A stretch of DNA of 57,138 nt from Candidatus Thorarchaeota archaeon (GTDB lineage Archaea; Asgardarchaeota; Thorarchaeia; Thorarchaeales; Thorarchaeaceae), in assembly GCA_020348985.1 (NCBI GenBank), contig CP070761.1, forward strand, positions 1,651,227 through 1,708,364, in the 5' to 3' direction. Of the stretch, positions 1 to 25,811 are shown in pieces. Numbering within the stretch: position 1 is the stretch's first letter; each line of letters begins with the position of its first letter. The notes under the pieces were generated by a model. That model saw only the letters and a list, made by a program, of their open reading frames with translations, was not told where the DNA came from and did not search any database. The position numbers and the translations under genes were made by a program.

Positions 1-106
1 TTGGGGTGAGGTGTCGTCCACTGGGCGATGACGAATCTTGGGTTCGCAAGTAGGGAGAAGTCGTAACAAGGTATCCGTAGCGGAAGCTGCGGATGGATCA
101 CCTCCT
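1..106 (+). rRNA. rrs: 16S rRNA gene, 3' end (partial, archaeal type)
   Basis: Universal AAGTCGTAACAAGGTA, helix 45 TCCGTAGC-GGAA-GCTGCGGA and anti-SD terminus GGATCACCTCCT ending at 106. Confidence 0.97.
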
Positions 107-210
107 TTGATTGCCCATCCTTAGGATGGGTAGAAGTGGAGGCTGGCGGTGGTAGAACTACGGGTAATTACCCCACTGGCATTGCTGAGCACCCTTTTCA
201 TTTTTACAGT
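107..210 (+). repeat. 16S 3' trailer element, native copy (hairpins plus T-rich terminator-like tract)
   Basis: CCCATCC-TTA-GGATGGG hairpin (114-130), palindrome GGGTAATTACCC (162-173), then GAGCACCCTTTTCATTTTT. Recurs six times downstream. Confidence 0.85.
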
Positions 211-238
211 GTTTGATTTCTTGACGGATTGAATTTAT

Positions 239-1003
239 TCATCGTTTTCTCAATAGTACTATCAGTACAACAAGACTGATTGCAACACCACCTACAATCA
301 GGTACAATTCAATACCAAAATTTGGAATTCCATCATTTCCAGTGTTTGAGGGAGGAGTATCTCTTGTGATTATTCCCAAATCCGATGTCACATGGTCACT
401 AAAAATCAAGGACATATTTGTAAATGAGTTTGCTAAAACTCCATCTTGCTTGTGATAGAGCTTTTCTCCATAACCAACATAATTACTGGATACGTAGGAC
501 TGTTGATATCCCCAAAAAGATGAATTCTCAAACACTTCAAAATCGTATGAATTGTCAACTCCTTCATAGGATGCTTCCATCAGTGTCGTTAGCAAGCTCC
601 AATTTCCAAGAGGTACTGCGAAATACTCATTCATTATCGCAATCCAAAATTGGTAAGAAGCAAGACTCTCATTATCATGAGGTATTGATGTCCCATTTAA
701 CCAGGAACCTGATATCCATGGAAAAGGTAATGTTTCACCTTCATCATGTCCAGGAATTCGATGAAACAAATCCACCTCTTGAGGGATATCGGGTAAGTGA
801 TAGAATTTAACGACTGTGATCTCACTCATTGTTTCTGAATGAATCTCACTTGCATTAGTCAATATGTTGGCAATTTCGACATTATAGTTGATTTCATAAT
901 CCTCTGCTATTCCCCAATTGAGTATAGAAGCATCATCTGCGTTTACAAAAGGTGCCCCAATGAATAGAATAGAAATTACTGCTATTACCAAGTACCTTCT
1001 CAT
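239..1003 (-). CDS. Hypothetical exported, C-terminally membrane-anchored protein
   Basis: 254-aa ORF with an N-terminal signal-like segment, several N-x-S/T sequons and a C-terminal TM helix ending in LLRKR. Visibly AT-rich. Confidence 0.8.
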   Translation of the reverse strand: MRRYLVIAVISILFIGAPFVNADDASILNWGIAEDYEINYNVEIANILTNASEIHSETMSEITVVKFYHLPDIPQEVDLFHRIPGHDEGETLPFPWISGSWLNGTSIPHDNESLASYQFWIAIMNEYFAVPLGNWSLLTTLMEASYEGVDNSYDFEVFENSSFWGYQQSYVSSNYVGYGEKLYHKQDGVLANSFTNMSLIFSDHVTSDLGIITRDTPPSNTGNDGIPNFGIELYLIVGGVAISLVVLIVLLRKR

Positions 1004-1158
1004 AACTCAGTACACCCTCTTATTCCATAAAATGGCTAGTGGCATATCAAATATCCTACGAAAATGTGTCTACTCTACACCTGAATCACAAGGCATCAAT
1101 GAGGATTGGAGTCGTACATGGCGTGCGGGGTCAGGCAAGAAGGGACTTGCCCTCCAAA

Positions 1159-1183
1159 GCATTGCTGAGCACCCTTTCATTTT
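1159..1183 (+). repeat. 16S trailer repeat copy 1 (3' part only)
   Basis: GCATTGCTGAGCACCCTTTCATTTT vs native 179-204 GCATTGCTGAGCACCCTTTTCATTTT (one T deleted). Confidence 0.85.
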
Positions 1184-1247
1184 GAATTGCTATTGCGTCT
1201 TGAAGCACAATAATTGGCTGGCACTCGGTCGCTCCGTTGGGTAATGA

Positions 1248-1427
1248 CATTGGGAATCTGGAAAGAATACGACGACAGCCATGGCCATTCTTATGGGACA
1301 GAAGTATGGGTTTACAATAAGGGACTTTCAAAACCTATTGTTCCCTTATCTGGTGCAAGTTGAGGGATTGAAACTTGCTGTACTTCCATTTGATAAGGAT
1401 GCGTCCAAGCTATCATACTGTGCCTGA
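1248..1427 (+). pseudogene. merA: Mercuric reductase C-terminal remnant
   Basis: Not in the ORF track. Translates to ...AMAILMGQKYGFTIRDFQNLLFPYLVQVEGLKLAVLPFDKDASKLSYCA*, matching the MerA tail pattern LFPYLTMVEGLKLAAQTFxKDVxxLSCCAG. The terminal CC has become YC. Confidence 0.8.
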
Positions 1428-1600
1428 AGAAACCTGAACAGATGAGTTGTTGGGTCCGTTTCTTTTGGAGTGGGAGGAATGTTTGTGCAGAATGTTGTTC
1501 ATCGAACTGGATGACCATCGAATTATTCAAATATACCACTAAGTCCATATACTGTTTGTCATAGGTCCGATGAATGTAGAAAAGGAGGAAGTGATGCAAG

Positions 1601-2212
1601 ATGAAGACACATACAACAGATGACTTTACTTATTCCGTCACCGAAATCAAGCCCTGCCTAGCTGATGAAAAGCGAATCCGAGTAATCGCTAGTTTCGAGG
1701 CTGATCTTACTCCAATTCTGGAGATTCTGTTCCTCCATCTACGAAATGCCAACTACTCCCGAAGTCTTGCCTGTGTCACATCAAAGCGTGCTGGGTGCTC
1801 AACGACAGTCTTCGGGAGTGGAAAGATAGCCATGACCTTCCTCAAAGATGAACAGGAAGCACTGGATCAACTATCAGCCCTCGCAAGGACTTTCACGAAA
1901 GCCTTTGACTATCTAGAGGCAAATGGAAGTCCCGACCCAAATGTCGTGCATGCTAAGGAGAACATCAACGCACTCGAGATTCACAAACTTCTTCCTCGAA
2001 CCGACTGTGGTGATTGCGGAGAATCGGGTTGCTTTGCATTTGCCATTGTACTCATGAATGGGGACAGGGATATTGCTAATTGTGAGCCCCTCGAGCGGAT
2101 CGAGTATTCAGACAAGCGGAACGCTCTAGTCAGGGTCATTCAGCCAATTGATCTGGATGCAACAAAAGATGGTTGCTCTGACCTTGCAGAATTTCTAGGA
2201 CTGAAGATTTGA
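1601..2212 (+). CDS. (Fe-S)-binding protein, COG4871-like, with C-terminal putative Fe-S domain
   Basis: LLPRTDCGDCGESGCFAFA...C motif typical of the RnfB/CdhE-type FeS domain; N-terminal PCLAD motif. Confidence 0.8.
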   Translation: MKTHTTDDFTYSVTEIKPCLADEKRIRVIASFEADLTPILEILFLHLRNANYSRSLACVTSKRAGCSTTVFGSGKIAMTFLKDEQEALDQLSALARTFTKAFDYLEANGSPDPNVVHAKENINALEIHKLLPRTDCGDCGESGCFAFAIVLMNGDRDIANCEPLERIEYSDKRNALVRVIQPIDLDATKDGCSDLAEFLGLKI

Positions 2213-2294
2213 GGATGACTCGCCAACAATGGCGAAGCCAAGCAGTTTCAGTTCAGCCGAAGCCCACCACTATGAACCCCTCAAAACAGTTAAA

Positions 2295-2312
2295 TATCGA
2301 GATTATTCGATA
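2295..2312. promoter_or_regulatory. Putative ArsR operator upstream of acr3
   Basis: Perfect TATCGA-gattat-TCGATA overlapping a TATA-like TTAAATA; related sites at 4228, 5459 and 9550. Confidence 0.7.
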
Positions 2313-2351
2313 AATCGAAAAACCAAGAGACGCGTTATGAGATGAAACATA

Positions 2352-3461
2352 TTGGGTGAATCTGAAACCGGTACCAAATCTGTGGTGGGCAGTCCAATAA
2401 CGGGCCTTTCTACACTCGACAAATTCCTGCCGCTTTGGATCATCTTGGCTATGGCCCTGGGTGTCTTGCTCGGCTATCTGGTACCCGGACTTGCCGCAGC
2501 ACTGGACTACTGGAGCATTGGGACCGTATCCATTCCCATTGCAATTGGTCTCTTGTGGATGATGTATCCTGTTTTGGCAAAGGTCAAGTATGAAGAACTG
2601 GGAAAGCTGAAAGGAGAGAAGAAGATGTTTGGGGTCTCCTTGACCCTGAACTGGTTGGTTGGCCCATTCCTGATGTTTGCCCTAGCCTGGATATTCCTAG
2701 CTGATCTCCCGGACTACCGAACTGGCATAATATTGGTAGGCCTTGCTCGGTGTATAGCGATGGTTCTAATCTGGAACATGATGGCAGGAGGATGTAGTGA
2801 GTCGTGCGCAGTTCTCGTTGCACTGAACTCAGTCTTCCAGATATTCATGTACAGCCCTGAAGCGTGGTTCTTTGTCACATATCTCTCTTCTATTGTATCG
2901 CCCGGAGCTGGCTCCGTTGTAGAGGTCTCGATTCTTGAGATTGCTTGGAGTGTCATCATCTTCCTTGGGATTCCACTAGCAGCAGGAATCGTCACAAGGT
3001 TCAGCCTGATGAAACGTAGGTCAAAAGAGTGGTACGACAAAGAGTTTGCACCAAAGCTGGGACCTTACGCTTTGATTGGGCTTCTATTCACGATAGTGGT
3101 CATGTTCTCTCTGAAGGGGGACACGATTGTTGCCCTTCCATTGGACGTACTCAGAATCGCTCTTCCACTTCTTTCATACTTTGTCATCATGTTCCTAGTA
3201 TCGTTTGGAGTCTCATACGCGATGAAGTTTACGTACGACAAGAATGCGACCATATCATTCACTGCAGCAAGCAACAATTTCGAACTGGCCATAGCTGTTG
3301 CAATTGGAGTGTTCGGTATTGGCTCGGGACAGGCACTTGCGGCTGTTGTTGGTCCTCTCATTGAGGTACCAGTCTTGGTCGGGTTAGTTTACGTTTCCAT
3401 GTGGCTGGGCCGACGATTCTACGGATGGACGCAAGAGGACTCAATCCCTGCTGAAACATAA
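2352..3461 (+). CDS. acr3: ACR3-family arsenite efflux transporter
   Basis: Signature motifs MMYPVL, GLARCIAMV, ASNNFELAIAVA and GPLIEVPVL; multi-pass hydrophobic protein. Confidence 0.95.
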   Translation: MGESETGTKSVVGSPITGLSTLDKFLPLWIILAMALGVLLGYLVPGLAAALDYWSIGTVSIPIAIGLLWMMYPVLAKVKYEELGKLKGEKKMFGVSLTLNWLVGPFLMFALAWIFLADLPDYRTGIILVGLARCIAMVLIWNMMAGGCSESCAVLVALNSVFQIFMYSPEAWFFVTYLSSIVSPGAGSVVEVSILEIAWSVIIFLGIPLAAGIVTRFSLMKRRSKEWYDKEFAPKLGPYALIGLLFTIVVMFSLKGDTIVALPLDVLRIALPLLSYFVIMFLVSFGVSYAMKFTYDKNATISFTAASNNFELAIAVAIGVFGIGSGQALAAVVGPLIEVPVLVGLVYVSMWLGRRFYGWTQEDSIPAET

Positions 3462-3465
3462 GATA

Positions 3466-3845
3466 TTGCTCAACTGCTCTCGTGAGGTATGTTCTGGAGG
3501 CAATGTCTCTCGTGCTGCAACGCTTGAGGTCCTCCACCGTCTGAGACCAACTGCATCAGTGACCATTTGTCTTCCCCTTTTCCTAGCTGGAGATGAAGCA
3601 GAGAGGGAGTTTGCAAGGAATTCCTTCAAACCACAATTGATGGATGCGACAAGCTCTGTGCCGCTAAGGGCACGAAGAAGTATAGCAGTAAACCAGCCAT
3701 GGAGATGAATCAAGAGGAATATCTGGGCGAATCTTGCATAGATGTTGACGAAAGATGGAGAATAGAATGATGTAGTGAGCTAGTTGACAAAATCGCTCAA
3801 GACATTGCATCGTATATCGATCGTTTAAGAGATGAATTTAGGTGA
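3466..3845 (+). pseudogene. DGC-domain (putative zinc-binding) protein pseudogene, paralogue of 11491-11898
   Basis: Collinear with 11491-11898 but has a 1-nt deletion near 3620 and CGA->TGA at 3768-3770. Confidence 0.85.
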
Positions 3846-3849
3846 TAAC

Positions 3850-4128
3850 ATGTCTGACAAGGTTCTGGTGATGGTATTCGTGGCTATGGGGGTATGCGGC
3901 TGTAGCCAGTCTGGATTCCTAGGGCGCATCTATGAAGCCATCAGGAAATATAGAAATATTGCTGATTATAGGGAATACCAAGCCGACAGTGACATAGCAA
4001 AGAAATACGGAATTGGTTACTGTGGTGTAGTGGTTAGCAGCAAATCAGTGGGAAGCAATCCCACCACAGCTAAGATTGAAGAAGCCATTCTCAAGGAGAT
4101 TAATCAACAAGGCACAGAAGCAATATGA
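3850..4128 (+). CDS. Small thioredoxin-fold-like protein with CxC motif, paralogue of 11889-12182
   Basis: GVCGCSQSGFL motif; SD-like AGGTGA before the ATG; closely similar paralogue in the second ars cassette. Confidence 0.75.
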   Translation: MSDKVLVMVFVAMGVCGCSQSGFLGRIYEAIRKYRNIADYREYQADSDIAKKYGIGYCGVVVSSKSVGSNPTTAKIEEAILKEINQQGTEAI

Positions 4129-4227
4129 AGGATGAGCAGCATCCGCATCTTTTCTCACCTGACCTTGGACATAGCTTATACCTAAGTGCAAGTCTACAGA
4201 TGAATGAGGCGCAAGGAAAGATTGATT

Positions 4228-4245
4228 TATCGAGATATACAGTGA
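4228..4245. promoter_or_regulatory. Putative ArsR operator upstream of arsR (weak right arm)
   Basis: ATTGATTTATCGAGAT at 4221-4236 is identical to 5452-5467. Confidence 0.5.
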
Positions 4246-4356
4246 AGCACAGCAATCCACTGAAGACAGTGAAGTGGTTTGAATGTTTCAGAGAACAGAT
4301 CTCACGATGTCAAGTTCTGACGAAGCATGCTTGATTTGCAAAATTGGGGTGTCGTT

Positions 4357-4653
4357 TTGAAAAGAGACAAACAAGCTGAATGGAGAGTCCACTTCCACAA
4401 GGCCCTAAGTAATCCTGAAAGACTGAGAATAGTGGATTTCCTTGCAGACGGCGAGCAATGTCAATGCGATGTGTTTCCGCAAATTGGACTGTCTCAGTCT
4501 ACAGTCTCTTCATACCTCACTCAACTTGTGAGAGCCGGTATCCTGAATGTAAGGCGCGATGGCACCAGGAAGCTCTATAGTCTCAGTGACCCACGCATAC
4601 GCAGAATGATACAAGACATACGTGGTCTTGCTGCCGAAATGACAGCTACATGA
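4357..4653 (+). CDS. arsR: ArsR/SmtB-family transcriptional repressor
   Basis: KALSNPERLRI...EQCQCDV (equivalent to the ELCVCDL As(III) box)...SQSTVSSYL...G. TTG start after GGGGTG; upstream ATG at 4327 is an alternative. Confidence 0.9.
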   Translation: MKRDKQAEWRVHFHKALSNPERLRIVDFLADGEQCQCDVFPQIGLSQSTVSSYLTQLVRAGILNVRRDGTRKLYSLSDPRIRRMIQDIRGLAAEMTAT

Positions 4654-5347: not shown

Positions 5348-5458
5348 TCTGGTGGTGCGATTTGCGTCGAATCCCATCAGCCACACTCTGTCAAGGCCAT
5401 ATCTTTGAGTAACCATAACCTAGCGAATATCACCTCACGACTCTCCGAAAAATTGATT

Positions 5459-5476
5459 TATCGAGATTATACGGTA
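5459..5476. promoter_or_regulatory. Putative ArsR operator upstream of the DUF5714-lplA operon
   Basis: TATCGA-gattat-ACGGTA; shares TATCGAGATTAT with the acr3 site. Confidence 0.6.
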
Positions 5477-5608
5477 AATGAGTGTGATGCATACCAGGAA
5501 TCTGAATCTTAGCACTCTGTGAAGGCAGTTGTTCTCTACACCATTGTCTTACAGAATGGTATCCATTATCACCGAGACCAGTGAGGCGCTTTGTGGAGGA
5601 AGGAATCA

Positions 5609-8237: not shown

Positions 8238-8317
8238 GAATCTCAACTCATCTATCATCATATTCCGAGTTCATTCCGTGGGGCGGTTGTTGAGAGCGGC
8301 AATGGAGCGAAGTGTCA

Positions 8318-8412
8318 CCATCCTTAGGATGGGTAGAAGTGGAGGCTGGCGGTGGTAGGACTACGGGTAATTACCCAACTGTCATTGTTAAGCACGCTTT
8401 CTCTTTTGCAGT
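8318..8412 (+). repeat. 16S trailer repeat copy 2
   Basis: 8318-8358 is identical to 115-155 (41 bp); 6 mismatches over 83 bp against 115-197. Confidence 0.95.
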
Positions 8413-8510: not shown

Positions 8511-9101
8511 TCAATGATCATTTAATCCCTTTCCATTGAGAATTCTCTGAACATGTTTTTCAACCCTTGACTCCCGAGTTTTGGATTGCTTGGGTGCAGA
8601 AAAATATAGAATGTATGCTCTTTGCCGTCCCGGCGTCAATGCATCAAAAGCAGTTTTCAAGGCAGGGCTTTCATCTAATTTCCTTTGAAACTCTTCGGGA
8701 ATCATGAATTCTGTAGTCTTTTTGAAATCCACCTTCAAACCGGCTTTTTCTACTTCAACGGCTTCATGAATATAGACTTTCAAGATTGTTTCCATCTCAG
8801 CTATTTCCTGAACATTGGTGAACCGAATCTGGCGCACCGCCTGCGTATTTTCCCCGGGTTTGGATAGTATACCATTGGCATCTTCTATCAAGGCACCTTT
8901 GAAGAAACTGAGCACGCAGTATTCTTTGAATCCCCCTATTATTGCCACGTTATTTCCCTGAAACGTGTAACAAGGTTGACGCCACTTCAATTCTTCCGTC
9001 AGCCCACAGTCAAGTATGATCCTTCTCAATTCGCCCAATTCCTTCTGCCACTTTTGGGCTCTTGCCAAAAATTCATCAACCTTAGGATTCATTCTATTCA
9101 T
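8511..9101 (-). CDS. YdeI/OmpD-associated family protein (DUF1801 + OmdA-like domain)
   Basis: EELKWRQPCYT, LSFFKGAL and AFDALTPGRQRAYILYFSAPKQSKTR motifs; bacterial-like sequence. Confidence 0.9.
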   Translation of the reverse strand: MNRMNPKVDEFLARAQKWQKELGELRRIILDCGLTEELKWRQPCYTFQGNNVAIIGGFKEYCVLSFFKGALIEDANGILSKPGENTQAVRQIRFTNVQEIAEMETILKVYIHEAVEVEKAGLKVDFKKTTEFMIPEEFQRKLDESPALKTAFDALTPGRQRAYILYFSAPKQSKTRESRVEKHVQRILNGKGLNDH

Positions 9102-9159
9102 TTGTTGGCGCTCCGAAACGAAGTGAGCCTATATCTGCCTACAATTCCTATCTATTCTT

Positions 9160-9390
9160 TAACAAGGTATCCGTAGCGGAAGTTACGAATAAAAGAAGAT
9201 GAGAGTCAATCTAGCCTTCCATCAATTACCTCCTGTGATTTCTCTCTCATAGAAGTAGAAGCAGATTGATCTCTCTTCAGAGAGAGAGGTTCGGGTCTTC
9301 GACGGGGCAGGCGGTGCATTCGAAGAAGTTGTCCATCGCCACATTCAGACTTGCCACACTCATGCTGCCGAGCACCCTTTCATTTTGCAT
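9160..9390 (+). repeat. 16S trailer repeat copy 3, including a degenerate duplicate of the 16S 3' end
   Basis: 9160-9182 TAACAAGGTATCCGTAGCGGAAG is identical to 64-86. Then ATTACCTCCTGTGATT (~9225, cf. ATCACCTCCTTTGATT), TAGAAGTAGAAGC and GAGCACCCTTTTCATTTT (~9370), with insertions between them. Confidence 0.85.
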
Positions 9391-9549
9391 ATGTTGTCCT
9401 GTGACTAGGCAGCATCCTCATTCTCTCCTCAAGGTCATCTTGAATCGAGATTCTGCCGTTCTGGTTGTCGAATGACTCCAAAGGCTCGACATCAAGATCC
9501 GGTAAACGACTTTCAAGAAACACGGCGCGCCTCCGCAGCAACACTGATA

Positions 9550-9567
9550 TATCGAAATAAACCGATA
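9550..9567. promoter_or_regulatory. Putative ArsR operator upstream of the hdrA-like/gcvH-like operon
   Basis: TATCGA-aataaa-CCGATA followed by AATCGAA, the same downstream flank as the acr3 site. Confidence 0.7.
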
Positions 9568-9595
9568 AATCGAACATTGAAACGAGCTGATTGCG

Positions 9596-10259: not shown

Positions 10260-10270
10260 GGTGGTGTTGG

Positions 10271-11107: not shown

Positions 11108-11110
11108 AGA

Positions 11111-12182: not shown

Positions 12183-12316
12183 TGAATCTACGTGATCTAT
12201 TATACCGTGAGACACACTCCGTCTACTACTATGGAAGTGAATTCCCTTCCAACCTAACTGAATCTGCCAAGGCCCGATACTTCAACAACCACATTCTGAC
12301 GAATGTCAGTCTGCAT

Positions 12317-12362
12317 TACGGGTAATTACCCACCCGTCACTTTTGAGCACCTGTTCATTCTT
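12317..12362 (+). repeat. 16S trailer repeat copy 4 (3' half)
   Basis: TACGGGTAATTACCCACCCGTCACTTTTGAGCACCTGTTCATTCTT aligns without gaps to 159-204. Confidence 0.85.
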
Positions 12363-12549: not shown

Positions 12550-13269
12550 CTACGCTGTAACTACTCCCTTGACATTTTCCTTCAGTCTTGTTCCATCCCG
12601 ATCGATTCTTGAGATTATGCCCTTTAGAGTGTGCAGCAGACCCGCAAGATCTTCATCCAGTTTCCTATGAGTAAGAATCTTCTCGACATTCAAGAGAGCG
12701 AGCTGCGCTTCATAGATTGTATCATAAACCGTACTGGGATACTTGAGGATGTATTCCTCTGACAGAACATGCTGGATTAGATCCAACAACTCGCCTGTTC
12801 CATAAACCTTCATGTCAATGGCCATTTTGGGACACGCGGAAACGCAGACACCACAGCCATGACATCTCTCTTGACGAACAAACAGTGTTCTGTCCTCTAT
12901 GATCGGAGCTTTCCACGGGCACATTTCGGTGCATAGGCCACAAAGAATACAACCTCTAGCACCATCCATTCTTACTTCAATGGTTGATAGCAATGCAATC
13001 TCTTCAGCATCCAGAGTTTCCTTCGAATCCCCAAAAACAATTGGATCCGGCACCTTTGACTTAAGCTCATCTGGATCGTGAAGGATTGCAGTAGTGCTTC
13101 CTCTCTTTCTGAGCTCTCTCTCAATCCGAGAGATGTAGATTGTGCAAGCCTGGATCGTATTCTTCAATGAAACAAGCATGTGCTTGAGATCAACGTCTGG
13201 ATGTTCAGGGAGCTTTCTAGGAAGAAGGACCCTGAATTCATGTGTCCGCCATTTCAGAGTTTTACCCAT
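12550..13269 (-). CDS. 4Fe-4S dicluster domain protein with helical flanks
   Basis: CILCGLCTEMCP and CHGCGVCVSACP. Confidence 0.85.
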   Translation of the reverse strand: MGKTLKWRTHEFRVLLPRKLPEHPDVDLKHMLVSLKNTIQACTIYISRIERELRKRGSTTAILHDPDELKSKVPDPIVFGDSKETLDAEEIALLSTIEVRMDGARGCILCGLCTEMCPWKAPIIEDRTLFVRQERCHGCGVCVSACPKMAIDMKVYGTGELLDLIQHVLSEEYILKYPSTVYDTIYEAQLALLNVEKILTHRKLDEDLAGLLHTLKGIISRIDRDGTRLKENVKGVVTA

Positions 13270-13278: not shown

Positions 13279-13710
13279 TCACCTATACCTTTGATCAACG
13301 CGAAGCCCCACTGAAAGTGTGACTTCCGGTGTGATCAACCCATTGTTAAGGAGGAATCTATCAACTTCATTCTGAAAGATCTGCTGAAGCGACTCCTCCT
13401 GCTTTCCCTCGGGCACGATGACCCGAGTCTGCACTTTGAGCGAGGTCAGATTCTTTTGCTCGGCCATCTTGCTTTTCGCATACTCGCCCATTGCATTCGA
13501 TTGGAGTTCTATCACTCCCACTCCAATGTCTTTCGTAGCCATCTCTAGAAGAAGATTAATGCAGGCCTCGCCAGCCGCCAAACACAAGTACTCTGAGTAG
13601 TCTGGATCGAAACATTCAGGCGCAACCGTCGAATAACGTAGAACGGGGGATTCCGAGTCTGTTGTTCTGACCTCGTGTTCACCAAGTTCATCTATTCTTT
13701 TCAACTTCAT
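13279..13710 (-). CDS. OsmC-like protein (divergent)
   Basis: EYLCLAAGEAC resembles the OsmC/Ohr PxELLLAALxxC motif; size and layout fit; resolving Cys not evident. Confidence 0.55.
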   Translation of the reverse strand: MKLKRIDELGEHEVRTTDSESPVLRYSTVAPECFDPDYSEYLCLAAGEACINLLLEMATKDIGVGVIELQSNAMGEYAKSKMAEQKNLTSLKVQTRVIVPEGKQEESLQQIFQNEVDRFLLNNGLITPEVTLSVGLRVDQRYR

Positions 13711-13940: not shown

Positions 13941-14210
13941 TTTGATGAGTTATGAATCAAAAGAACACCAGAGAATAATGCACGATAAGCGACTCCTTCG
14001 TCATGAAGCTGTCCGTTTTGTGCCATAGGAACTCCGTTCTTGAAGAAGCCATATTTTCAACTAAAAAGCAACTCTTCGATTGCTGCCTATTTCAACAGAA
14101 TCCTTTCAGATGTGAGACTGGGGCAATTTCGGTCAGTTTCGCCTCGTCGTCGAGAGTGAAGACATCTATTATGGTTTCTGAAGCGTTTGCAGTCTCGAAC
14201 ATCACAAAGT

Positions 14211-14303
14211 CCCATCTTTGGGATGAGTAGAAGTGGAGGCTTACGGTGGTATAACTACGGGTAATTACCCAACTGTCACTGTAGAGCACCCTTTCATTCT
14301 ACA
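14211..14303 (+). repeat. 16S trailer repeat copy 5
   Basis: Gapless match to 114-197 with about 11 mismatches; GGGTAATTACCC intact. Confidence 0.95.
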
Positions 14304-16502: not shown

Positions 16503-17171
16503 TTACTTTTGGAGCAGTTTACTCAATCGCATCTTCTCCTCAGGAGCCAACAATCGGTAACCATCCAGTTTCTCAAGCGGAATATAAAACGTCGGGGCGA
16601 TACACTTTGGGTGATGCCATCTATAGGATAGGTGTTCTTCATAGAAATATGGCTCCCCTATTCTGAATCGTCCTTCTTCTATTGGTCTTCCACAAGATCG
16701 GCATTTAGATCGTCCTGATTTTGCAGTCTCAACCTTCCATACCGGCTCGGGTTCTTTCTTACTTCGCTTCAGTTTTTCTAGGAAGTCGATAGGCTTCTGA
16801 CCCACCATCTCGATTGTGAATCTAAGATTGAACGAATCATATTCACTAGGAGAGAATAGAATCACAATGTCACCATCCTTTAACGAGTCTTTGATAGTCA
16901 TGTCTGGCGGCCATCGTTTGGTCTGTTTCATGTATTCAAGCGCTTGCTCTGCTAGTATCATACTGGCTTCCTTCTTTGAAATATCCCTTACCCCAGTTTT
17001 TTCGGCAATCCCATAATCTGTTTCAATGTACTTTGCACCCTCTTCTGTAACACCTCTAGATTTTATCAATACCACAGACCCTACCAGTACTGATTTTTGC
17101 AGGCGCCTTAGTCTGAATGTTTTAGTATTTACCCAGTATGCCCAATCCACTTCATAATCCACTTCGGACAT
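16503..17171 (-). CDS. Protein with C-terminal PARP-type zinc finger (paralogue 1)
   Basis: VETAKSGRSKCRSC...RFRIG...RWHHPKC equals the zf-PARP C-x2-C...H-x2-C pattern. Confidence 0.85.
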   Translation of the reverse strand: MSEVDYEVDWAYWVNTKTFRLRRLQKSVLVGSVVLIKSRGVTEEGAKYIETDYGIAEKTGVRDISKKEASMILAEQALEYMKQTKRWPPDMTIKDSLKDGDIVILFSPSEYDSFNLRFTIEMVGQKPIDFLEKLKRSKKEPEPVWKVETAKSGRSKCRSCGRPIEEGRFRIGEPYFYEEHLSYRWHHPKCIAPTFYIPLEKLDGYRLLAPEEKMRLSKLLQK

Positions 17172-17330
17172 CCAATATCGACCTGCCCGATTTGCTGCCT
17201 TAGCCCCTGGCGGCTCTCCCATACGATTGGGAGTGTTCGTTTGTGGTGTGGCGAATAACCGATTTCATAACACAAGCTTGTGTCACGCCAAGAACAGCCG
17301 CATCAAGAAAGATGCCTATCGAGTTTAACA

Positions 17331-17756
17331 TTATTCCACTTTGACCCTGTATCCCAGAGCATCCTTTGGTTCGATTGGTTTCAAAACAACCTCAAGGACT
17401 CCATTGTTGAAGGCAGCCTTTGTCTTTGAGGGGTCGAATCTCCTCGAAAACGAGTAGCTACGTCTGTACTTCCTGTTTTCACTCTCTGCCTTGACTACCA
17501 CATCGTTCTCAGTAACTGAAATGTCAATATCACTCCTGTCTACACCAGGCATCTCAAGAATGATTGTTGTCGTTCCTGTTTTTTCATCAGTGTTTATTTC
17601 CGAGAGCGGGGTGCGAAATCCCTCTTCAAAGCCACGCGCCCAATCCCAAGGATATCTCACCATTGATCTGAATACTCTTTCTATGTCTGATAGACCAAAT
17701 GAATCGAAAGGGGCCCGTCTTTCTGCAATATCTCTTCGCTCATCATCATCATTCAT
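17331..17756 (-). CDS. Small heat-shock protein (Hsp20/alpha-crystallin)
   Basis: EMPGVDRSDIDISV...KAAFNNGVLEV...GYRVKVE. Confidence 0.92.
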   Translation of the reverse strand: MNDDDERRDIAERRAPFDSFGLSDIERVFRSMVRYPWDWARGFEEGFRTPLSEINTDEKTGTTTIILEMPGVDRSDIDISVTENDVVVKAESENRKYRRSYSFSRRFDPSKTKAAFNNGVLEVVLKPIEPKDALGYRVKVE

Positions 17757-17778
17757 CGATGTTCTCTCTCCAGAATCT

Positions 17779-18492
17779 CTACTGTCTCAAGAGCCGCTTC
17801 AGACGCAATCTCTCGCTTGCGTTCAGGTTCTTGTATCCATCAAGGTTTTCAACATCATCCGCATCAATCCTTTTTGCCACACATCTCGGATGATGCCATC
17901 TACAAAAGATGCTCCCTTCACTGAAGATTGGTTCACCGATTCGGAATCTGCTTTTTAGGATTACATCTTTGCAGGAATAGCACTTTGTCTTCCCTGACCT
18001 GGCAGTTTCAACTCTCCATGATGGGTGCTGTCGTGTATCATCTTTCCCGAGTCGTGCCAAGAACATCTCCGGATCATCACCAATCAACTCTCGTGTCATA
18101 ATAAGAGCAAAGGAGTCATACTCAGTGGGCTCGTACCAAACCTCCACATCTCTCGATTCTAGAACTCTCTTCCTCGATGTGAATGGAGGCCAATGATTCG
18201 TCCCTTGCATGTACTCAAGAACTTGCCTAGCAAGTATAGTGCATGTTTGTTTCTTTGTTAGCTCCACTATGCCTGTTTCATCAACTATGCCAAAAGAAGA
18301 CCTTACGTACGTTCTCTCATCATCAATACTCTCTCGACTCTTCACCACGATGATTGCACCAACAGGAGCATGCTTCTTGACTCGCTTGAAGTTCAACGAA
18401 TCCACATCAATCCAATACGCCCACTCGGTTTCTATCTTAACCCAAACCGGTCCATGTCGATTGGGTTCCGATATTGCCCCAGATTGCATCAT
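17779..18492 (-). CDS. Protein with C-terminal PARP-type zinc finger (paralogue 2)
   Basis: VETARSGKTKCYSC...RFRIG...RWHHPRC; N-terminal WAYW domain shared with paralogue 1. Start uncertain (18492 or 18507). Confidence 0.85.
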   Translation of the reverse strand: MMQSGAISEPNRHGPVWVKIETEWAYWIDVDSLNFKRVKKHAPVGAIIVVKSRESIDDERTYVRSSFGIVDETGIVELTKKQTCTILARQVLEYMQGTNHWPPFTSRKRVLESRDVEVWYEPTEYDSFALIMTRELIGDDPEMFLARLGKDDTRQHPSWRVETARSGKTKCYSCKDVILKSRFRIGEPIFSEGSIFCRWHHPRCVAKRIDADDVENLDGYKNLNASERLRLKRLLRQ

Positions 18493-18530
18493 GTTTGCTT
18501 TCAACATGTTAATCGCCCGCATTACACATA

Positions 18531-18583
18531 CTGTAAACGATTGTATACAATATGTCATCAGATTGTTATAAACTTGTCTACAA
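18531..18583. promoter_or_regulatory. Phased TTGTATACAA-like box array over the zf-PARP promoter
   Basis: Boxes at 18531, 18541 (perfect), 18552, 18563 and 18574, spaced 10-11 bp; overlaps a minus-strand TTTATAA. Confidence 0.65.
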
Positions 18584-20214: not shown

Positions 20215-21263
20215 TTGCGTGATGAGCCGCTGGGGAGCCCTACCAAGGGCTCTCATATATCATCTGATGAAACTGAAGGCGTGGAGGAGATATCCGCGAT
20301 GCTTTCGATGATTGATTTCAGTACAATTCACATGAAAGTCCATGACAAGATTTCTATCGACGATTGTGTTCTACCACAAGATTCTGCGTTGACAAGGTCG
20401 GTCCATCTTGCGGGACTTCAAGATAGACAATCGATTGAGCAGATTGGCAGGCAGTTTGGTATTCACCCACTCCTTGTTGAAGACATCCTCAATCCTAGAC
20501 ACCGTCCCAAGTTAGATGCTGAGTCCGATCAATTCTGTCTGATTCTTCGAGAGTTCAGATTGATCCCATCACTGCAAATGGAGTCTGAACAGGTTAGTAT
20601 TGTTGTAGGTTCTGGATTCGTCCTATCATTTCAAGAAAGCAATGTTGATCTGTTCTCTGACATTAAACTAAGACTATCAAATCCAAAGAGCAGGGTGAGA
20701 AGAAGCAAGTCTGACTTCTTGGGTTATTTGTTGATTGATGCCTTGATTGACCGTTACTTAACCATAATGGACGCATTTGATGACAGGATTCAGACACTTG
20801 AGGACACGTCAGAATCATGGGACAGGATGACCCTAAACGAAATCTACAGGCTAAGATATCTGATGGAATCCTGCAGAGAACTGTCCGCCCTCTCCGAGAG
20901 GCCATTTCGAGACTTGTACGAAGCGAGTCTGAAGTTGTCATTGAAACGTCTCGTCCCTACCTAAGAAATCTCTATGACCATCTTCTTCAGATCGGAGAAA
21001 TGGCAGAAGCATACTTAGATAATCTGTCCAACATGCTAGAGATTCATCTTTTGCGGCTTGATACAAAGACGAACGAAACCGTCAAGATTGTTACAGTTGT
21101 TTCAACGATTCTAATGCCAGTTACATTCATTACAAGCATTTTTGGGATGAACTTCGAAAGTATGCCTTTTCAGTTAGAGTATGGATATCCACTGGTTGTC
21201 ATATCAATGACCGTAGTTGGCTTTTTTCTCATCCACTACTTCCGAAGAAAGCAATGGATTTGA
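20215..21263 (+). pseudogene. corA: Mg/Co transporter CorA, frameshifted
   Basis: IHPLLVEDILNPRHRPKL and EQVS...LSFQE in one frame; RPLRE...YLRNLYDH...FGMNF in another; shift near 20855. The N-terminus also looks degenerate. Confidence 0.85.
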
Positions 21264-21397
21264 GCCGTTCTCCCAAAGACCACATCATTCAATTCCCACT
21301 TCTTTGGCCTCAATTCTATGAACTCTTTGGGTCAAGGGAATTCATAGTCATGATATGGTAGGCAGATGAATCTCAGGGGAAAGGACTTGGCTCGAAA

Positions 21398-22906
21398 TCA
21401 CTCTAGGCCTTCCAAATTTTCTTCGTTGATTCTTTCCGTGCTACGAGTGCGACGTCGTCTTTTGGACAGTGGCAAATGAAAAGTCTGTCTGAGGCCATCG
21501 ACAGTCGAAAGGGTCTTCACATTACGTCGAGTCTCAGCGATAATGGCTTCAACCACCACCCTTTCTTCAACTTCTCCTATCTCATTCACCAATGCTAGTC
21601 TATGAAGTGCAAAGACCCCAATTATGACAGATAACAAGAAGACAAAATCCAGCCCCTGAATGTGATATGTGTGAATGACTGTCACACCGCCTGGATCCAC
21701 CCAAGTGAACGAAAAATACAGCTCACGTGATGCAAAGAAATCAGCAAGCAATCCACCTATGACCGATGCAACTCCACCAGCCGCGGCATTGATTGTTCCC
21801 CTTGCAGCCAAATACGAATGCGCCTCTCCTCTTGGGGCAATCTTTAGATCGATGTTACTCCCAGCCAGGTTTACGCCGGCTGAAGCAAACCCTGTCATTA
21901 CATGAATTATGATGAGTAGTGGCAAGAGCAGTGAGACTGATTCTGCAACACTGCTGAAGGTCCACAGAAGCGTTCCTATTATGTAGATTGGAACAGTGAC
22001 TTGAAGGATGGATTTATTGCTGAATCGATCTGAGAGCCGACCCCAAAACCGAAGAAAGATGATGCTTGTCATCTGTGTCAAAGCGACGAAGGCCGCTGCA
22101 ATCTGGAGGCCAAACCCTAGTCGCACGAGAAGGTATACGCTGAAGAATGGTGCAGCAAGATTAGCACTCAGAACCCAGACAAGCGAAAACCACATCACGT
22201 TTCTGAAATTGCCATCCTTGAATGGTTTTGCTACCAATTCTAGGAAGGCTGGCTTCTTATCATAAAAAAAGAGCAAGGGTTCCGGAGTTCTTGAAGTGAA
22301 GTATACTGCTATCATACCTGAAATGAACGCTATAAAGAAGAGAATCGAGTACGCGCGTGCAAGGTCGGCCGGACTCCAGCTTAACCACAGTGCCACAAGA
22401 ACACCCCCTCCTAGAGAGGTGGCAACAGAAACCGCACCCATAATCGACATTCTTCTAGAGAAGAAAGCCCCTAGCTGATGTTGAGGGACCAGGTCTCGCA
22501 ACCAAGAATTCCAACTCGACGTTCCAAGGGACGTGAAGATTGCTTGAATGCTGACAGAGAGAAGAAGCAGTATTAGGCCTTGCGTTGTCATTGATATATA
22601 CGGTATCAGCACCATAATGAGAACTGCTAGCCTGTTCCCTAGCTGAGTTATGAAGTTCAGTTTCTTTCTACTTCCAAATCTGTGGATCAGATAGATTGAA
22701 GGTATCTGAAGAAACTGGGCAAGGAATGGAATAGCTGCGAAAATTCCAATGACCGAATTTGACGCTCCAAGCAGCAGTGCAAATCCAACCAGAAAGACAC
22801 TCTCGGTAAGTGAGAGTCTCACTTGAGCGGTGATGCCCTGCAGTATTACTCTCTGCTGGGCGACGGCGACTTCGTCGTCGGTCAAATGACCTTTAATCTG
22901 AGACAT
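21398..22906 (-). CDS. MFS transporter
   Basis: About 12 TM segments; FWGRLSDRFSNK MFS loop motif. Confidence 0.9.
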   Translation of the reverse strand: MSQIKGHLTDDEVAVAQQRVILQGITAQVRLSLTESVFLVGFALLLGASNSVIGIFAAIPFLAQFLQIPSIYLIHRFGSRKKLNFITQLGNRLAVLIMVLIPYISMTTQGLILLLLSVSIQAIFTSLGTSSWNSWLRDLVPQHQLGAFFSRRMSIMGAVSVATSLGGGVLVALWLSWSPADLARAYSILFFIAFISGMIAVYFTSRTPEPLLFFYDKKPAFLELVAKPFKDGNFRNVMWFSLVWVLSANLAAPFFSVYLLVRLGFGLQIAAAFVALTQMTSIIFLRFWGRLSDRFSNKSILQVTVPIYIIGTLLWTFSSVAESVSLLLPLLIIIHVMTGFASAGVNLAGSNIDLKIAPRGEAHSYLAARGTINAAAGGVASVIGGLLADFFASRELYFSFTWVDPGGVTVIHTYHIQGLDFVFLLSVIIGVFALHRLALVNEIGEVEERVVVEAIIAETRRNVKTLSTVDGLRQTFHLPLSKRRRRTRSTERINEENLEGLE

Positions 22907-22931
22907 CAGTCTACCCGCTGAGAAGTAGGAT

Positions 22932-23111
22932 TCAATTCCGGTCAGTCATTGTGGCCTGTTCGATTCTTTCCCTTTCCTCATACTCATCCAAGTGAGAACG
23001 AATTGCTTCTCGAACGAATGAGGGAAACCCCTTCCATGAGTCCTTCTTGGCAAGGTTTTCGTAACGGGTCTTGAGATCCCGCGGCACTCTAATCATGATG
23101 TCATCTGACAT
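22932..23111 (-). CDS. Ribbon-helix-helix (CopG/Arc-like) DNA-binding protein
   Basis: MSDDIMIRVPRDLKTRYENLA...FPSFVREAIRSHL. Confidence 0.8.
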   Translation of the reverse strand: MSDDIMIRVPRDLKTRYENLAKKDSWKGFPSFVREAIRSHLDEYEERERIEQATMTDRN

Positions 23112-23142
23112 AGCAAACGCCACACTGATGGTCCGAACATGC

Positions 23143-23239
23143 CTGTATACATATGGCAGCATCTTTATATACATTCAGTTTACAATGTGTATGCCAAGAA
23201 GCTACAAATCTATACAATGGGTATACCAAATGTATACTC
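23143..23239. promoter_or_regulatory. Array of about 8 degenerate NNGTATACNN boxes with ~11-bp period upstream of the RHH gene
   Basis: Boxes begin at 23143, 23165, 23176, 23187, 23198, 23208, 23219 and 23230. Confidence 0.7.
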
Positions 23240-23425
23240 GTCCAAACAGATTGAGCTGATTGGCGTTTGTGGGGAGCTAATGCTCTCCCATGTGCTTGTG
23301 AAAACACAGAGGACAGGAAGGTCTCCACCGAGATCATCCGTGTCCTCACTATGCTGGATACATAATCATCTTGCACATCTTATATCGTGCCTGCAAGCTG
23401 AGTCCAGTCCAAACACCATCGAAAA

Positions 23426-23911
23426 ATGAAGCGAATGCAATCGAAGACAGCTGTGAAGTCAGGCAAAGGCGACTCCACAAAGTCCGCTACAAAGAACCAA
23501 CGAAAGAAAGAGCGCAGGAGAATGATGCTCGACCAGCTCTCAAAGACCTCAAGGAGAAGCTCCAACGATAGTAGAGCCGGAGCCGGGTCAAAGAAGAAGC
23601 AGGGTGGCGGCGGGAAACCTAAGAAGAAGCGGAAGTAGATGCAAGATGAGAATCCAACAGGTATACCATCACCACCTAGTTTGAAAATGACGCAAAAGAC
23701 AGTCAGTCCTCGAAGGACACGAGAAAATGTGAGTGTCCAAGAACGGCCCGGGATCAAGAGAAAGAAATCACGAAAGCGAAACACCAAAGCTGAGCCCATT
23801 CGAGTGATGTCTTCTGAGCTGGTATTTGAATATACTATGATTGCCATTCCAATCTTTATTCTTGTCAGCCTGCTTTTCATTCTGGCTTTGATGGGTGGGT
23901 TTAGGATTTAG
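23426..23911 (+). pseudogene. Lys/Arg-rich ORF pair with C-terminal TM, split by an in-frame TAG (possibly one decayed gene)
   Basis: 23426-23638 and 23639-23911 are in the same frame, separated only by TAG. Confidence 0.35.
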
Positions 23912-24040
23912 GACTCACGAGGTTCCCTTGGTCTGGATGTCCATCTTGGCATTCTCCTTCCGGAATCTTTCTGTAAACCGATTTATTGCAGAAGTGCGAT
24001 ACACAAATATGTCCCAAACTCAGACCTTCGTATCTCTATT

Positions 24041-24541
24041 ATGACACCTGACGAATCAGCTCCTCCCGATGTTGGTGATCTAGCACCTGATTTCGCATTG
24101 CCATCTACTCAGGGGGAGACAGTCCAGCTGTTGTCTTTGAGAGAATGTCCTGTTATCTTGTTCTTCCTTACTGACACCTTTACTTTCTTCTCACGTGGTT
24201 TTTCCAAGATTTTCGAAGCACTACACGAATCTCTAAGCATGATGGAAGTCAGGGTCGTCGGTGTATCCACCGAACCAGTGGAAACTCTTTGTACATTCTC
24301 TGATGATCAGCATATCCCCTACACGCTACTCAGCGACTTTGACCGTCATGTTTCACGTGCATATGGCACACTAACAGATAGAATCGCTGGTTTGACCATG
24401 GTAACCCGTGCGGGTATCTTTGTCATCGACACGAAGGGGAGAATCGCGTACAGATGGATTTATGATGAAGAGGGTCCGGTTCCAGATGCCGACCAGATAG
24501 TTGAACTAGTTTCAAAGCTCCAGAGCGAAACAAGCAGCTAG
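24041..24541 (+). CDS. Peroxiredoxin/BCP-family protein lacking the peroxidatic Cys
   Basis: VGDLAPDFAL, VVGVS, LLSD...YG and R.IFVID..G.I; the PxxxTxxC site reads TDTFTFFS. Confidence 0.85.
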   Translation: MTPDESAPPDVGDLAPDFALPSTQGETVQLLSLRECPVILFFLTDTFTFFSRGFSKIFEALHESLSMMEVRVVGVSTEPVETLCTFSDDQHIPYTLLSDFDRHVSRAYGTLTDRIAGLTMVTRAGIFVIDTKGRIAYRWIYDEEGPVPDADQIVELVSKLQSETSS

Positions 24542-25647
24542 ACACCGCCAAGCTGCAGTATGCTGAAGACAGCAATCTGAGCGAAAACATAACACAATAT
24601 AAGTAAAACCCCCTCTCTCCTTGTAACACGCCAGTCCACTTTGATAACAAAGTAGAACAGTGTTGAGATTGCGAGAGAAAGTCCCATCAGCAGTCCCGCC
24701 GTGAGCATGTCTATTGAGACGGATACAGCCAAAACGCCGATACCCAATCCCAGTGTAATGTTGATTATGTTGCTTCCAATCACGTTTCCAATGAGTAGCC
24801 TGCCAAATCCCTTGCGGGCACTGTTAACAGAAACCATGATTTCCGGCAGAGATGTACCCAAGGCAACTACTGTAAGTCCAATCAACCCCTCATTTACTCC
24901 CCAAAAGAGACTAAGGTGTGTTGCTCCTTGGATCACGAATTGCGCTCCTACAACCACTCCCAAACATGAGAGAATGACGATCATGCTATCACGATACGGT
25001 CGAACGAGTTGCTTTTGCTGTGCTGATTCGTCATGTTCTTCTTCATGATTGGAATCAACCACCTTTGATTTGGTGGCATGGGATTTACGTGCGAGTCCTT
25101 GAAGCGTTGTTAGGAACCGCAACCTAATCAGATAGTCTACGAAGACTTCGAACTGATAGCATGTTTCACATTCATCTCGGTTATCATAAAGAAATAGAAC
25201 GTACGCGACAAACAAAAGCAGCAATACGACACCCTCGTAGGCAACAATCTGTGCTGGTGTGACTGGATCAAACATCGAGAACCCCAAGAAGAGGAGAATA
25301 AAGATCATGACCTTGGAATCTCGACCAAGAAGTGCTGCGTTTGACGCGAGAGGCGCAAGCACTGCGCTAAGACCAATAACCAAAGTCAGGTTTGCTATGT
25401 AACTCCCTAGGACATTACCAAAGGCCAAATATGCACTGCCTGCCACAACCGCTAGAGAGCTCGAGACTATCTCCGGAAGCGAAGTCCCAACGGCAACAAG
25501 TGTAAGACCTATGAAGAGCTCGGATATGCCTGCAGATCTTGCTAGTTTGGATGCTGTCTCTACAAAGTATTCGGAACCTTGACTAAGCATGATAAGGCCA
25601 AGGGCTAGGAGCCCGACATTGAAGATTGCTGCCAAGGACTGCAACAA
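24538..25647 (-). CDS. Calcium/sodium antiporter (CaCA, YrbG-like)
   Basis: Two GTSLPE repeats, each followed by GNV.GS. Confidence 0.93.
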   Translation of the reverse strand: MLQSLAAIFNVGLLALGLIMLSQGSEYFVETASKLARSAGISELFIGLTLVAVGTSLPEIVSSSLAVVAGSAYLAFGNVLGSYIANLTLVIGLSAVLAPLASNAALLGRDSKVMIFILLFLGFSMFDPVTPAQIVAYEGVVLLLLFVAYVLFLYDNRDECETCYQFEVFVDYLIRLRFLTTLQGLARKSHATKSKVVDSNHEEEHDESAQQKQLVRPYRDSMIVILSCLGVVVGAQFVIQGATHLSLFWGVNEGLIGLTVVALGTSLPEIMVSVNSARKGFGRLLIGNVIGSNIINITLGLGIGVLAVSVSIDMLTAGLLMGLSLAISTLFYFVIKVDWRVTRREGVLLILCYVFAQIAVFSILQLGGV

Positions 25648-25753
25648 GACTCACCATCGGAAAACGCTGTATCACTGCATTCTATCATGAATCTATCCTT
25701 TTCTATTAGGTCTGAATCTCGTCTCAAAATCAGTCATCGACATAATGCTATCA

Positions 25754-25811
25754 GTAGTAGGACTACGGGTAATAACTCCGCCGCCACTATTAGACAACCT
25801 TTCGTTTTCCA
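25754..25811 (+). repeat. 16S trailer repeat copy 6 (highly decayed)
   Basis: GTAGTAGGACTACGGGTAATAACTCCGCCGCCACTATTAGACAACCTTTCG aligns without gaps from position 149 onward; differences are mostly transitions. Confidence 0.7.

Follow-up and report, generated by a model that had tools for sequence, protein, structure and literature searches.

Several systems are known in which accessory genes are gained or exchanged at a fixed chromosomal site. Tandem islands at tRNA and transfer-messenger RNA (tmRNA) genes, among them tyrosine-integrase islands and the hypervariable islands of Prochlorococcus, carry direct repeats of the 3' end of the gene. In the minimal mobile elements of Neisseria and in additive flexible genomic islands, cassettes are exchanged by homologous recombination in conserved flanks. 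Here, we analysed a stretch of 57,138 nucleotides (nt), hereafter the window, from a metagenome-assembled genome (MAG) of a Candidatus Thorarchaeota archaeon (assembly GCA_020348985.1, contig CP070761.1, positions 1,651,227 to 1,708,364), whose first 25.8 kb hold gene cassettes separated by copies of the 16S rRNA trailer. We consider it probable that this is a hypervariable, integron-like cassette array built out of the 3' end of a stand-alone 16S gene, in which accretion and exchange take place at the core of the trailer, most likely through host homologous recombination.

The array shares some traits with each of these systems and departs from each in others. As in sedentary chromosomal integrons and clusters of attC sites lacking integron-integrases (CALINs), cassettes of about 1 kb lie between copies of a repeated site of about 100 nt, their content is hypervariable and their order shuffled, and the downstream repeat tends to travel with the cassette; the cargo (toxin-antitoxin pairs, acetyltransferases, transporters and unknowns) is also strikingly like that of sedentary chromosomal integrons. 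Unlike integrons, the Thorarchaeaceae arrays were found without IntI, are anchored at an rRNA gene instead of an attI site beside intI, and hold cassettes in both orientations with promoters of their own, whereas integron cassettes are promoterless, co-oriented and served by one common promoter. The repeats, being derived from the 16S trailer, are not attC sites and lack the R''/R' inverse core and the conserved hairpin: RYYYAAC 40-140 nt upstream of GTTRRRY was found in none of 161 repeat units, and GTTRRRY at all in 81 of them. As at tRNA and tmRNA islands, the 3' end of a conserved RNA gene is duplicated at each boundary, growth is additive and downstream, and recent units are foreign in composition; here, however, the 3' end of the 16S gene and its processing-stem trailer serve as target, most units consist of one gene of about 1 kb instead of an element of 10-100 kb, and no integrase was seen at the borders examined. 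The array resembles the Neisseria elements in that accessory cassettes are exchanged without a dedicated recombinase and a conserved flank serves as homology anchor, which is the mechanism that we favour; those elements, in contrast, offer one alternative cassette between two conserved genes, whereas here a non-coding sequence is reiterated and cassettes stand in series. Finally, co-oriented repeats alternate with acquired inserts beside a conserved leader-like end, as in CRISPR arrays, but the inserts are genes of 0.25-11 kb, the repeats measure 50-230 nt, there are no cas genes and no clean age polarity is apparent.

Among Asgard archaea, integrons and attC clusters are enriched (Ghaly et al. 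2022, PMC9668308), and only two Thorarchaeaceae genomes are listed in that survey; as these have two attC sites each, the trailer arrays differ from those reported by Ghaly et al. The closest precedent is found in Ca. Heimdallarchaeum, in which two elements, HeimM2 and HeimV2, sit precisely between the single 16S gene and tRNA-Arg (Wu et al. 2022, PMC8813620), integration by a co-opted rRNA-intron homing endonuclease being suggested. The site directly past a single 16S gene is thus already known as an integration spot in Asgard archaea, but there it holds one or two large elements of 8 and 44 kb, and the section of PMC8813620 consulted describes no trailer-repeat array or small cassettes; also in contrast to that case, no homing endonuclease was found in the source MAG (LAGLIDADG_3 model). 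The initial annotation of the window was aware of no description of an rRNA-anchored, integron-like accretion site in archaea. This holds for trailer-repeat cassette arrays, of which we found no description in the searchable full-text literature, and has to be qualified for the site itself, which was noted once, in Heimdallarchaeum (PMC8813620).

The window is one entire contig of the source MAG (3.16 Mb, about 131 contigs joined by 100-N spacers, 86% complete) and opens inside the 16S rRNA gene. Neither 23S rRNA nor tRNA was found across its 57 kb; the 16S gene therefore has no remainder of an rRNA operon behind it and stands alone. Searches with RF01959 and RF02540 across the source MAG gave no match, the 16S gene being truncated there at the start of the contig, and the blank obtained with RF01959 on genome G041 is unexplained and uninformative. 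Labels beginning with G and L denote the related genomes and loci compared, G000 being the source MAG; all genomes compared are MAGs and none is closed.

The trailer of about 100 nt (R0, the reference copy) recurs as six further copies, R1 to R6 (Table 1), so that seven copies, all on the same strand and all intergenic, are spread over 25.8 kb, as first noted in the initial annotation and borne out by nhmmer with a family profile. R2 matched R0 with 90% identity over 90 nt (E = 2e-20) and R5 with 82% identity (E = 1.4e-17); the partial copies R1, R4 and R6 had E-values of 4e-4 to 3e-3 with the single query and of 1e-12 to 2e-4 with the family profile. Confinement of the repeat to the region downstream of the 16S gene, which had been predicted, was also observed, since, at E < 0.1, a profile built from the three long copies detected nothing more in the 3.16 Mb of the MAG, which is 86% complete. 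The repeat had been placed right after the 16S gene; most copies do begin about 8 nt past the mature 16S end, but some take in its last 43-50 nt. Likewise, copies differ in identity as described, without a simple gradient of decay along the array: the distal cores of the window have decayed to 62-81% identity, and a clock in which the newest cassette stands next to the 16S gene was dropped, as identity to R0 is not monotonic with distance.

Two findings go beyond the initial annotation: such arrays extend across the family Thorarchaeaceae, and the repeat is one strand of a processing helix. Specifically, it makes up the 3' strand of the pre-16S processing helix and is trailed by a T-tract terminator, the pairing being taken from two relatives with a complete 16S gene on one contig (L022, 1001-2532; L025, 208-1795; Rfam), as the leader of the source MAG is not assembled. 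In these relatives, leader and trailer form a duplex of -134 and -126 kcal/mol, respectively, with pairing over about 200 nt. The trailer blocks GAAGTGCAGGC, GACGGGG and GTTTACCC and the core CACTGCTGAGCA each lie opposite a complementary leader block, and where the cores of L022 and L025 differ (C/T), their leaders differ correspondingly (G/A), i.e. by one compensatory change. The repeat is not a self-folding element: RNAalifold gave no consensus pairs in arm and core with two alignments, and the first hairpin after the 16S gene is the only local structure. Single-sequence folds had z-scores of -2.5 to -3.4, because the strand is half of an intermolecular helix. The core itself, 25-33 nt long (CAYTGYTGAGCACCCTTT(T)CATTTT), is nearly invariant across genera, with 79-81% identity between loci, whereas arms are 54% identical. 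As the trailer must pair with the leader, it belongs to the best-conserved non-coding sequences of the family, and the same core of 25-33 nt is therefore found in every family member. The 5' ends of the copies are scattered across some 100 nt, most of their 3' ends being sharp; many copies, though not all, continue past the T-tract for about 35 nt. Across the family, the copies contain at most about 50 nt of 16S sequence, and no duplicates of the leader occur.

An iterated profile recovered 161 copies at 37 loci in at least 30 independent MAGs (records titled Thorarchaeota, Promethearchaeota or Hermodarchaeota). Copies are co-oriented within each locus, the lone opposite-strand copy among the 161 being the 16S leader itself. 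A covariance model, which carries sequence only, matched 25 of 26 sampled family members (1 to 19 copies per genome), the family searched being equated by inference with Thorarchaeaceae, the name used in the GTDB strings of a published table; outside the family, it had no match in 125 genomes that represent 26 further families of the phylum, the model being specific to the trailer of this family. Wherever both lie on one contig, the array begins at the 16S gene (the window and loci L021, L022, L025, L052, L053, L055, L094, L106 and L109). Copies at two contig ends in G004 suggest an array of at least 56 kb in that genome, and several high-quality genomes, e.g. that of the congener G001, have the 16S-adjacent copy only. 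Arrays are borne, for example, by G004, G005, G011, G022 and G157; in G001, G006, G014, G015, G017 and G021, one or two copies and no array are present. Between repeats lie 122 segments, with a median of 1040 bp; 139 of their open reading frames (ORFs) are on the strand of the repeat and 86 (about 38%) on the opposite one. Record CP070658.1 (loci L122-L124), titled as the chromosome of Thorarchaeota bin8, was dropped as a test of genome-wide confinement and linkage, since a 100-N run every few kb reveals concatenated contigs and not a closed genome; its trailer copies all lie within one 10-kb contig.

Gain and loss of blocks among relatives, a comparison proposed at the outset, was evident. 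No array gene is common to the three congeneric species G000, G001 and G002, G001 having no array, and array content and order differ among relatives with breakpoints at the repeats; upstream of the 16S gene, about 10 kb of housekeeping genes (M1 aminopeptidase, class I tRNA synthetase, OsmC proteins, methyltransferase) are collinear in four genera. Two cassettes that stand in the order A-B in L057 are found as B-X-A in L098, again with breakpoints at repeats. A junction variant was also recovered from public data. The source contig is present in sediment metagenomes of four studies (runs X1-X4), and one metagenome contig joins position 178 to position 1159 through 19 nt common to R0 and R1, skipping exactly the first cassette (C1) and an arm; a contig bearing C1 occurs in the same run. 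Parts of the window that had no contig cover in runs X3, X4 and X12 were left out of interpretation. Exact-protein look-ups for alternative cassette contexts returned, beside the source record, one short Logan contig only.

These data leave little room for a mobile element of the miniature inverted-repeat transposable element (MITE) or repetitive extragenic palindromic (REP) type scattered between pre-existing genes, for decayed remnants of tandem 16S genes or for an assembly artefact, which together we regard as very improbable. The copies are indeed short, non-coding and numerous, and some solo copies differ between otherwise collinear genomes. Unlike MITE or REP elements, they occupy a single locus on one strand and have neither terminal inverted repeats nor a self-complementary consensus structure that we could find; their arms equal lineage-specific trailers, and the genes between them are not conserved among relatives. 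The short 16S fragments and the uncopied leader argue against tandem 16S remnants, and an artefact is countered by the recurrence of the architecture in dozens of independent assemblies, which come from different studies and were made with different assemblers, as well as by an independent Logan contig that covers positions 120-1188 of the window, i.e. R0, C1 and R1.

The repeats themselves record exchange. Their arms can be sorted into discrete types, each equal to the trailer that adjoins the 16S gene in one lineage or another, and the arrays combine such types in mosaic fashion. In the window, arm and core identity to R0 are decoupled, R1 combining a foreign-type arm with a nearly intact core and R2 the reverse (Table 1), so that repeats are chimeric; R2 consists of a resident-type arm joined to a diverged core. 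Among homologous cassettes of different arrays, the downstream arm was of the same type in 11 of 38 pairs, against a background of 16% (Fisher P = 0.03), and the upstream arm in 3 of 25 pairs, without excess; over all homologous pairs, arm identity was not above background, the association being restricted to the typed analysis of closer pairs. A ParE cassette found in three genomes with 85-88% amino acid identity is equipped with a conserved TATA-like promoter region of its own; at the nucleotide level, its homology begins at the promoter, covers both genes, the downstream arm and the core, and ends at the T-tract. Per-cassette composition, another check proposed for the window, set apart C1 and C3 as outliers in G+C content (37.1 and 41.1%, against 48.0 +/- 1.5% for the genome) and in tetranucleotide usage, and these are the two cassettes of the window with a foreign-type arm behind them. 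Taken together, the shared downstream arms, the extent of the ParE homology and the foreign arms behind compositional outliers indicate that the unit of transfer consists of genes plus downstream repeat, with crossovers at or near the core.

Could the copies instead be kept as RNA or DNA signals, i.e. as terminators, modules of 3' untranslated regions (UTRs) or leader-pairing sequences spread by segmental duplication, the variability around them being incidental? All copies end in a T-tract and stand at gene ends, the core is far better conserved than the arms, and every copy is oriented so that its transcript could pair with the leader. Moreover, locus L050, in which the arm and 165 nt are deleted, retains core and T-tract directly after a stop codon. 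Such a function would nevertheless leave unexplained why the copies keep to a single locus and why their arms form a mosaic of types belonging to other lineages; nor would it account for the cassettes of foreign composition, the shuffling of cassettes or the cassette-sized indel within a population. It also sits badly with the decay of the distal cores of the window and with the cassette ORFs on the opposite strand, about 38%, for which the copy lies outside the 3' UTR. We therefore hold an explanation by signals alone to be improbable, while a retained core with its T-tract probably acts as terminator for cassette genes within the array.

Repeated addition of cassettes at the stand-alone 16S gene, each leaving a trailer copy, had been proposed from the window alone and is now supported by the confinement of the repeats, by turnover among relatives, by the junction variant and by cassette composition. 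In the mechanism that we propose, recombination between two direct repeats would loop out a cassette and its downstream repeat as a circle, which could re-enter the same or another Thorarchaeaceae genome through a single Campbell-type crossover in a resident repeat. Between the repeats of different lineages, the core would be the only stretch identical enough for recombination, and crossovers would land there for that reason. The expected outcome would be chimeric repeats, a donor arm downstream of the cassette, co-orientation of all repeats and restriction to one locus. The enzyme would most likely be the homologous-recombination machinery of the host, which is favoured by the variable 5' ends, the optional 3' extension and the absence of any recombinase found; variable repeat boundaries also fit homology-driven events better than one fixed site. 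Toxin-antitoxin cassettes may, in addition, stabilise the array.

Several points weigh against this proposal. The circular intermediate was not seen, and canonical homologous recombination would normally call for more than a core of 19-25 nt; Sulfolobus recombines efficiently over short homologies, which may or may not extend to Asgard archaea. The association of downstream arms is statistically modest, and the related genomes on which it is based are not independent. The junction from 178 to 1159 comes from a single Logan contig of depth 3, with a shorter side of 47 nt and a likeness threshold of 90%, and the linkage of array and 16S gene is seen only where both share one contig, all genomes being MAGs. 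Finally, the sharp, constant 3' ends and the conservation of the core beside unrelated arms fit a site-specific enzyme as well, and a novel recombinase could be encoded among the many unannotated ORFs.

A recombinase acting in trans is a serious rival to homology-driven recombination, even though we judge it unlikely. In that case, the architecture would be the same and cassettes would be moved by a dedicated site-specific enzyme recognising the core, much as IntI does attI and attC in integrons or island integrases do tRNA 3' ends; the enzyme would belong to an unrecognised family or come from a transient virus or plasmid. The high conservation of the core next to unrelated arms and the nearly constant 3' boundary of the repeat are what such an enzyme would produce; the junction of the indel falls within the core, and among copies with a 16S fragment the starting point recurs, 43-50 nt ahead of the 16S end, such a copy standing behind all six ydeI cassettes. 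Half of the cores read GTTGAGC, in agreement with the integron R' consensus GTTRRRY; the other common variant, GCTGAGC, which is that of the window, mismatches it. Against one fixed site also stand the varying 5' ends and the optional 3' extension.

No candidate for such an enzyme was met near the array. The absence of a visible integrase or transposase, remarked on from the start, was confirmed by Pfam scans of the window ORFs (up to 43 kb), in which no integrase, transposase or recombinase domain was detected. PF00589 had no match in the whole source MAG nor in G011, a 97% complete genome with a rich array, and its matches in G002, G004, G005 and G016 were never on the array contig. Upstream of the 16S gene, four relatives encode housekeeping genes only and no recombinase was found. 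For homing endonucleases, PF14528 gave no match in the source MAG, only the LAGLIDADG_3 model being searched, and LAGLIDADG matches in relatives are mostly inteins, none of them within an array. Among viral contigs of IMG/VR, seven chance matches to the core were obtained and none contained the full repeat. As an observation apart, a LAGLIDADG domain (G011, C2:591390-591629) lies in an open frame of 267 amino acids inside the 16S gene of that Thorarchaeaceae relative and is probably part of an rRNA intron with a homing endonuclease.

Two observations outside the family speak for a site-specific enzyme; one is the attribution of the Heimdallarchaeum post-16S elements to a co-opted homing endonuclease (PMC8813620), and the other comes from G028, a member of another family of the phylum. 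There, the final 110 nt of the 16S gene and its trailer are repeated downstream of the gene in copies of 300 nt (one 89% and one 61% identical), which bracket a defence-like block of 14 kb and a block of 1.4 kb, without a recognisable integrase. The 14-kb block (L139:4187-18266), which looks like a defence island at the 16S site, encodes a SIR2-STAND-TPR protein, a HEPN protein and an ORF of 1625 amino acids without Pfam family. Six other genomes had no copies within 18 kb. G036, which belongs to another Asgard family, has a duplicate of 57 nt about 1 kb downstream (L138:1548-2581), made up of the 16S 3' end and its hairpin, in which compensatory changes are seen; a LAGLIDADG_3 ORF lies between the two copies of the 16S end, inside a 16S-23S spacer of 3.8 kb, and the arrangement probably represents a separate case, of intron or homing type.

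On a broader scale, we put forward more tentatively, as a possibility that falls somewhat short of an even chance, that Thorarchaeaceae and possibly other Asgard archaea own an undescribed gene-capture platform, i.e. an equivalent of the integron built on the 16S trailer, either free of recombinase or served by an unrecognised enzyme family, and feeding on a cassette pool common to several genera. A conserved rRNA processing signal doubling as a landing pad for recombination would amount to a novel design for an integron-like system, possibly along a recombinase-free route. The locus is a hotspot recognisable from sequence alone, at which accessory genes are stockpiled and exchanged across the whole family, and the trailer core offers a simple marker for mining cassette pools in sediment metagenomes. 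For users of assemblies, the 16S-adjacent contigs of Thorarchaeaceae MAGs call for caution: as they are mosaic and repeat-rich, assemblies break there and the 16S gene is poorly binned.

Table 1. Positions and main characteristics of the 16S rRNA 3' end, trailer copies (R) and cassettes (C) in the window
Feature	Position	Strand	Description
16S rRNA 3' end	1..106	+	Rfam RF01959, 74.4 bits, E = 1.3e-17, model positions 1372-1478, archaeal small subunit
R0	107..211	+	16S trailer, reference copy; hairpin 114-130, motifs GAAGTGGAGGCTGGCGG and GGGTAATTACCC, core CATTGCTGAGCACCCTTTTCATTTTT; T-tract terminator
C1	212..1116	-	Single gene 239-1003, 254 amino acids, no Pfam family, converging on R0
R1	1117..1189	+	Short copy; foreign-type arm 47% identical to R0, core 96%
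C2	1190..8315	+	Fe-S protein, ACR3/SBF arsenite-type carrier, DGC-domain proteins, ArsR, DUF5714, two LplA-like lipoate ligases (Pfam)
R2	8316..8411	+	Resident-type arm 94% identical to R0, diverged core 74%
C3	8412..9158	-	ydeI 8511-9101, DUF1801 and OmdA
R3	9159..9389	+	Full-length foreign-type copy; 16S 3' fragment 9160-9190 (5' end, copy of 16S positions 64-94), diverged trailer with insertion, core 9366-9389
C4	9390..12308	+	Ferredoxin-like protein, DGC-GcvH fusion, two DGC proteins, small ORF (Pfam)
R4	12309..12362	+	5'-truncated resident-type copy: TACGGGTAATTACCC and decayed core
C5	12363..14156	-	4Fe-4S ferredoxin-domain protein 12550-13269, 143-amino-acid ORF 13279-13710
R5	14157..14303	+	Long resident-type copy, arm 84%, core 81%; degenerate 16S-like stretch 5'
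C6	14304..25746	.	11.4 kb, stress and transport functions: FMN reductase, DUF6879, two zf-PARP proteins, Hsp20, split CorA, MFS, peroxiredoxin, Na/Ca exchanger
R6	25747..25811	+	Final, most decayed copy; distal array end

Several cassette families recur across genomes, i.e. PIN/VapC with VapB, ParE with a small antitoxin, YdeI, GNAT acetyltransferases, Na/Ca exchangers and ACR3-type carriers, as well as methyltransferases, hydrolases, FMN/flavin reductases, MFS transporters and a TnpB-like gene. The ACR3 and LplA genes of C2 were found again in arrays of other genomes, and the FMN reductase and the Na/Ca exchanger of C6 occur as single-gene cassettes elsewhere. In composition, C2 is host-like (46.7% G+C), and C6 has 45.2% G+C with a tetranucleotide distance at the 98th percentile. 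As first described, three blocks (C1, C3 and C5) open with a gene converging on the preceding T-tract.

The ydeI gene of C3 adjoins the same 16S-fragment repeat in five other Thorarchaeota arrays, and the homology of C3 to L027 extends from the gene into R3. In four sediment metagenomes, the summed contig depth of ydeI exceeded that of neighbouring bins, with many variants and loose ends at the gene borders, which indicates that ydeI is present in several contexts. A contig of run X3 goes from 9107 back to 8516 with 17 extra letters, which could reflect tandem ydeI genes of a related organism or a small circle; we did not use this joint as evidence of a circle, since it could stem from tandem genes of another organism.

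Larger units are found in some arrays. A unit of 8.7 kb with about 86% amino acid identity is common to the arrays of two genera (L022:2749-11202 and L025:7357-15941), lying directly past the 16S trailer in one of them. Besides an ORF of 1693 amino acids without Pfam family, it encodes a ClpP-like SDH protease and a TnpB-like protein (Cas12f1-like_TNB), and it has the appearance of a larger mobile element that has settled within the array. Giant ORFs abutting the trailer in G005 and G028 were considered as homologues and rejected (E = 0.47).

Within the window, positions 11534-12187 of C4 are about 80% nucleotide-identical to 3482-4133 of C2, both holding a DGC-domain protein paired with an ORF of 97-98 amino acids (repeat families D1, D4-D6). 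A motif, GATTTATCGAGAT...TCGATAAATCGAA, stands upstream of genes in two different cassettes (2285-2319, 4216-4236, 5447-5483 and 9538-9574) and looks like a common operator. In C6, the Hsp20 gene is flanked by two paralogues, each with a terminal zf-PARP domain (16503-18558), and the CorA Mg2+ transporter (20215-21263) is split into two ORFs that overlap (20215-20964 and 20817-21263), one matching the N-terminal and the other the C-terminal half of PF01544, i.e. a frameshift, pseudogene or sequencing error. Past R6, the window continues with metabolic genes, and synteny with the congener G002 returns at 45.8-54.3 kb.

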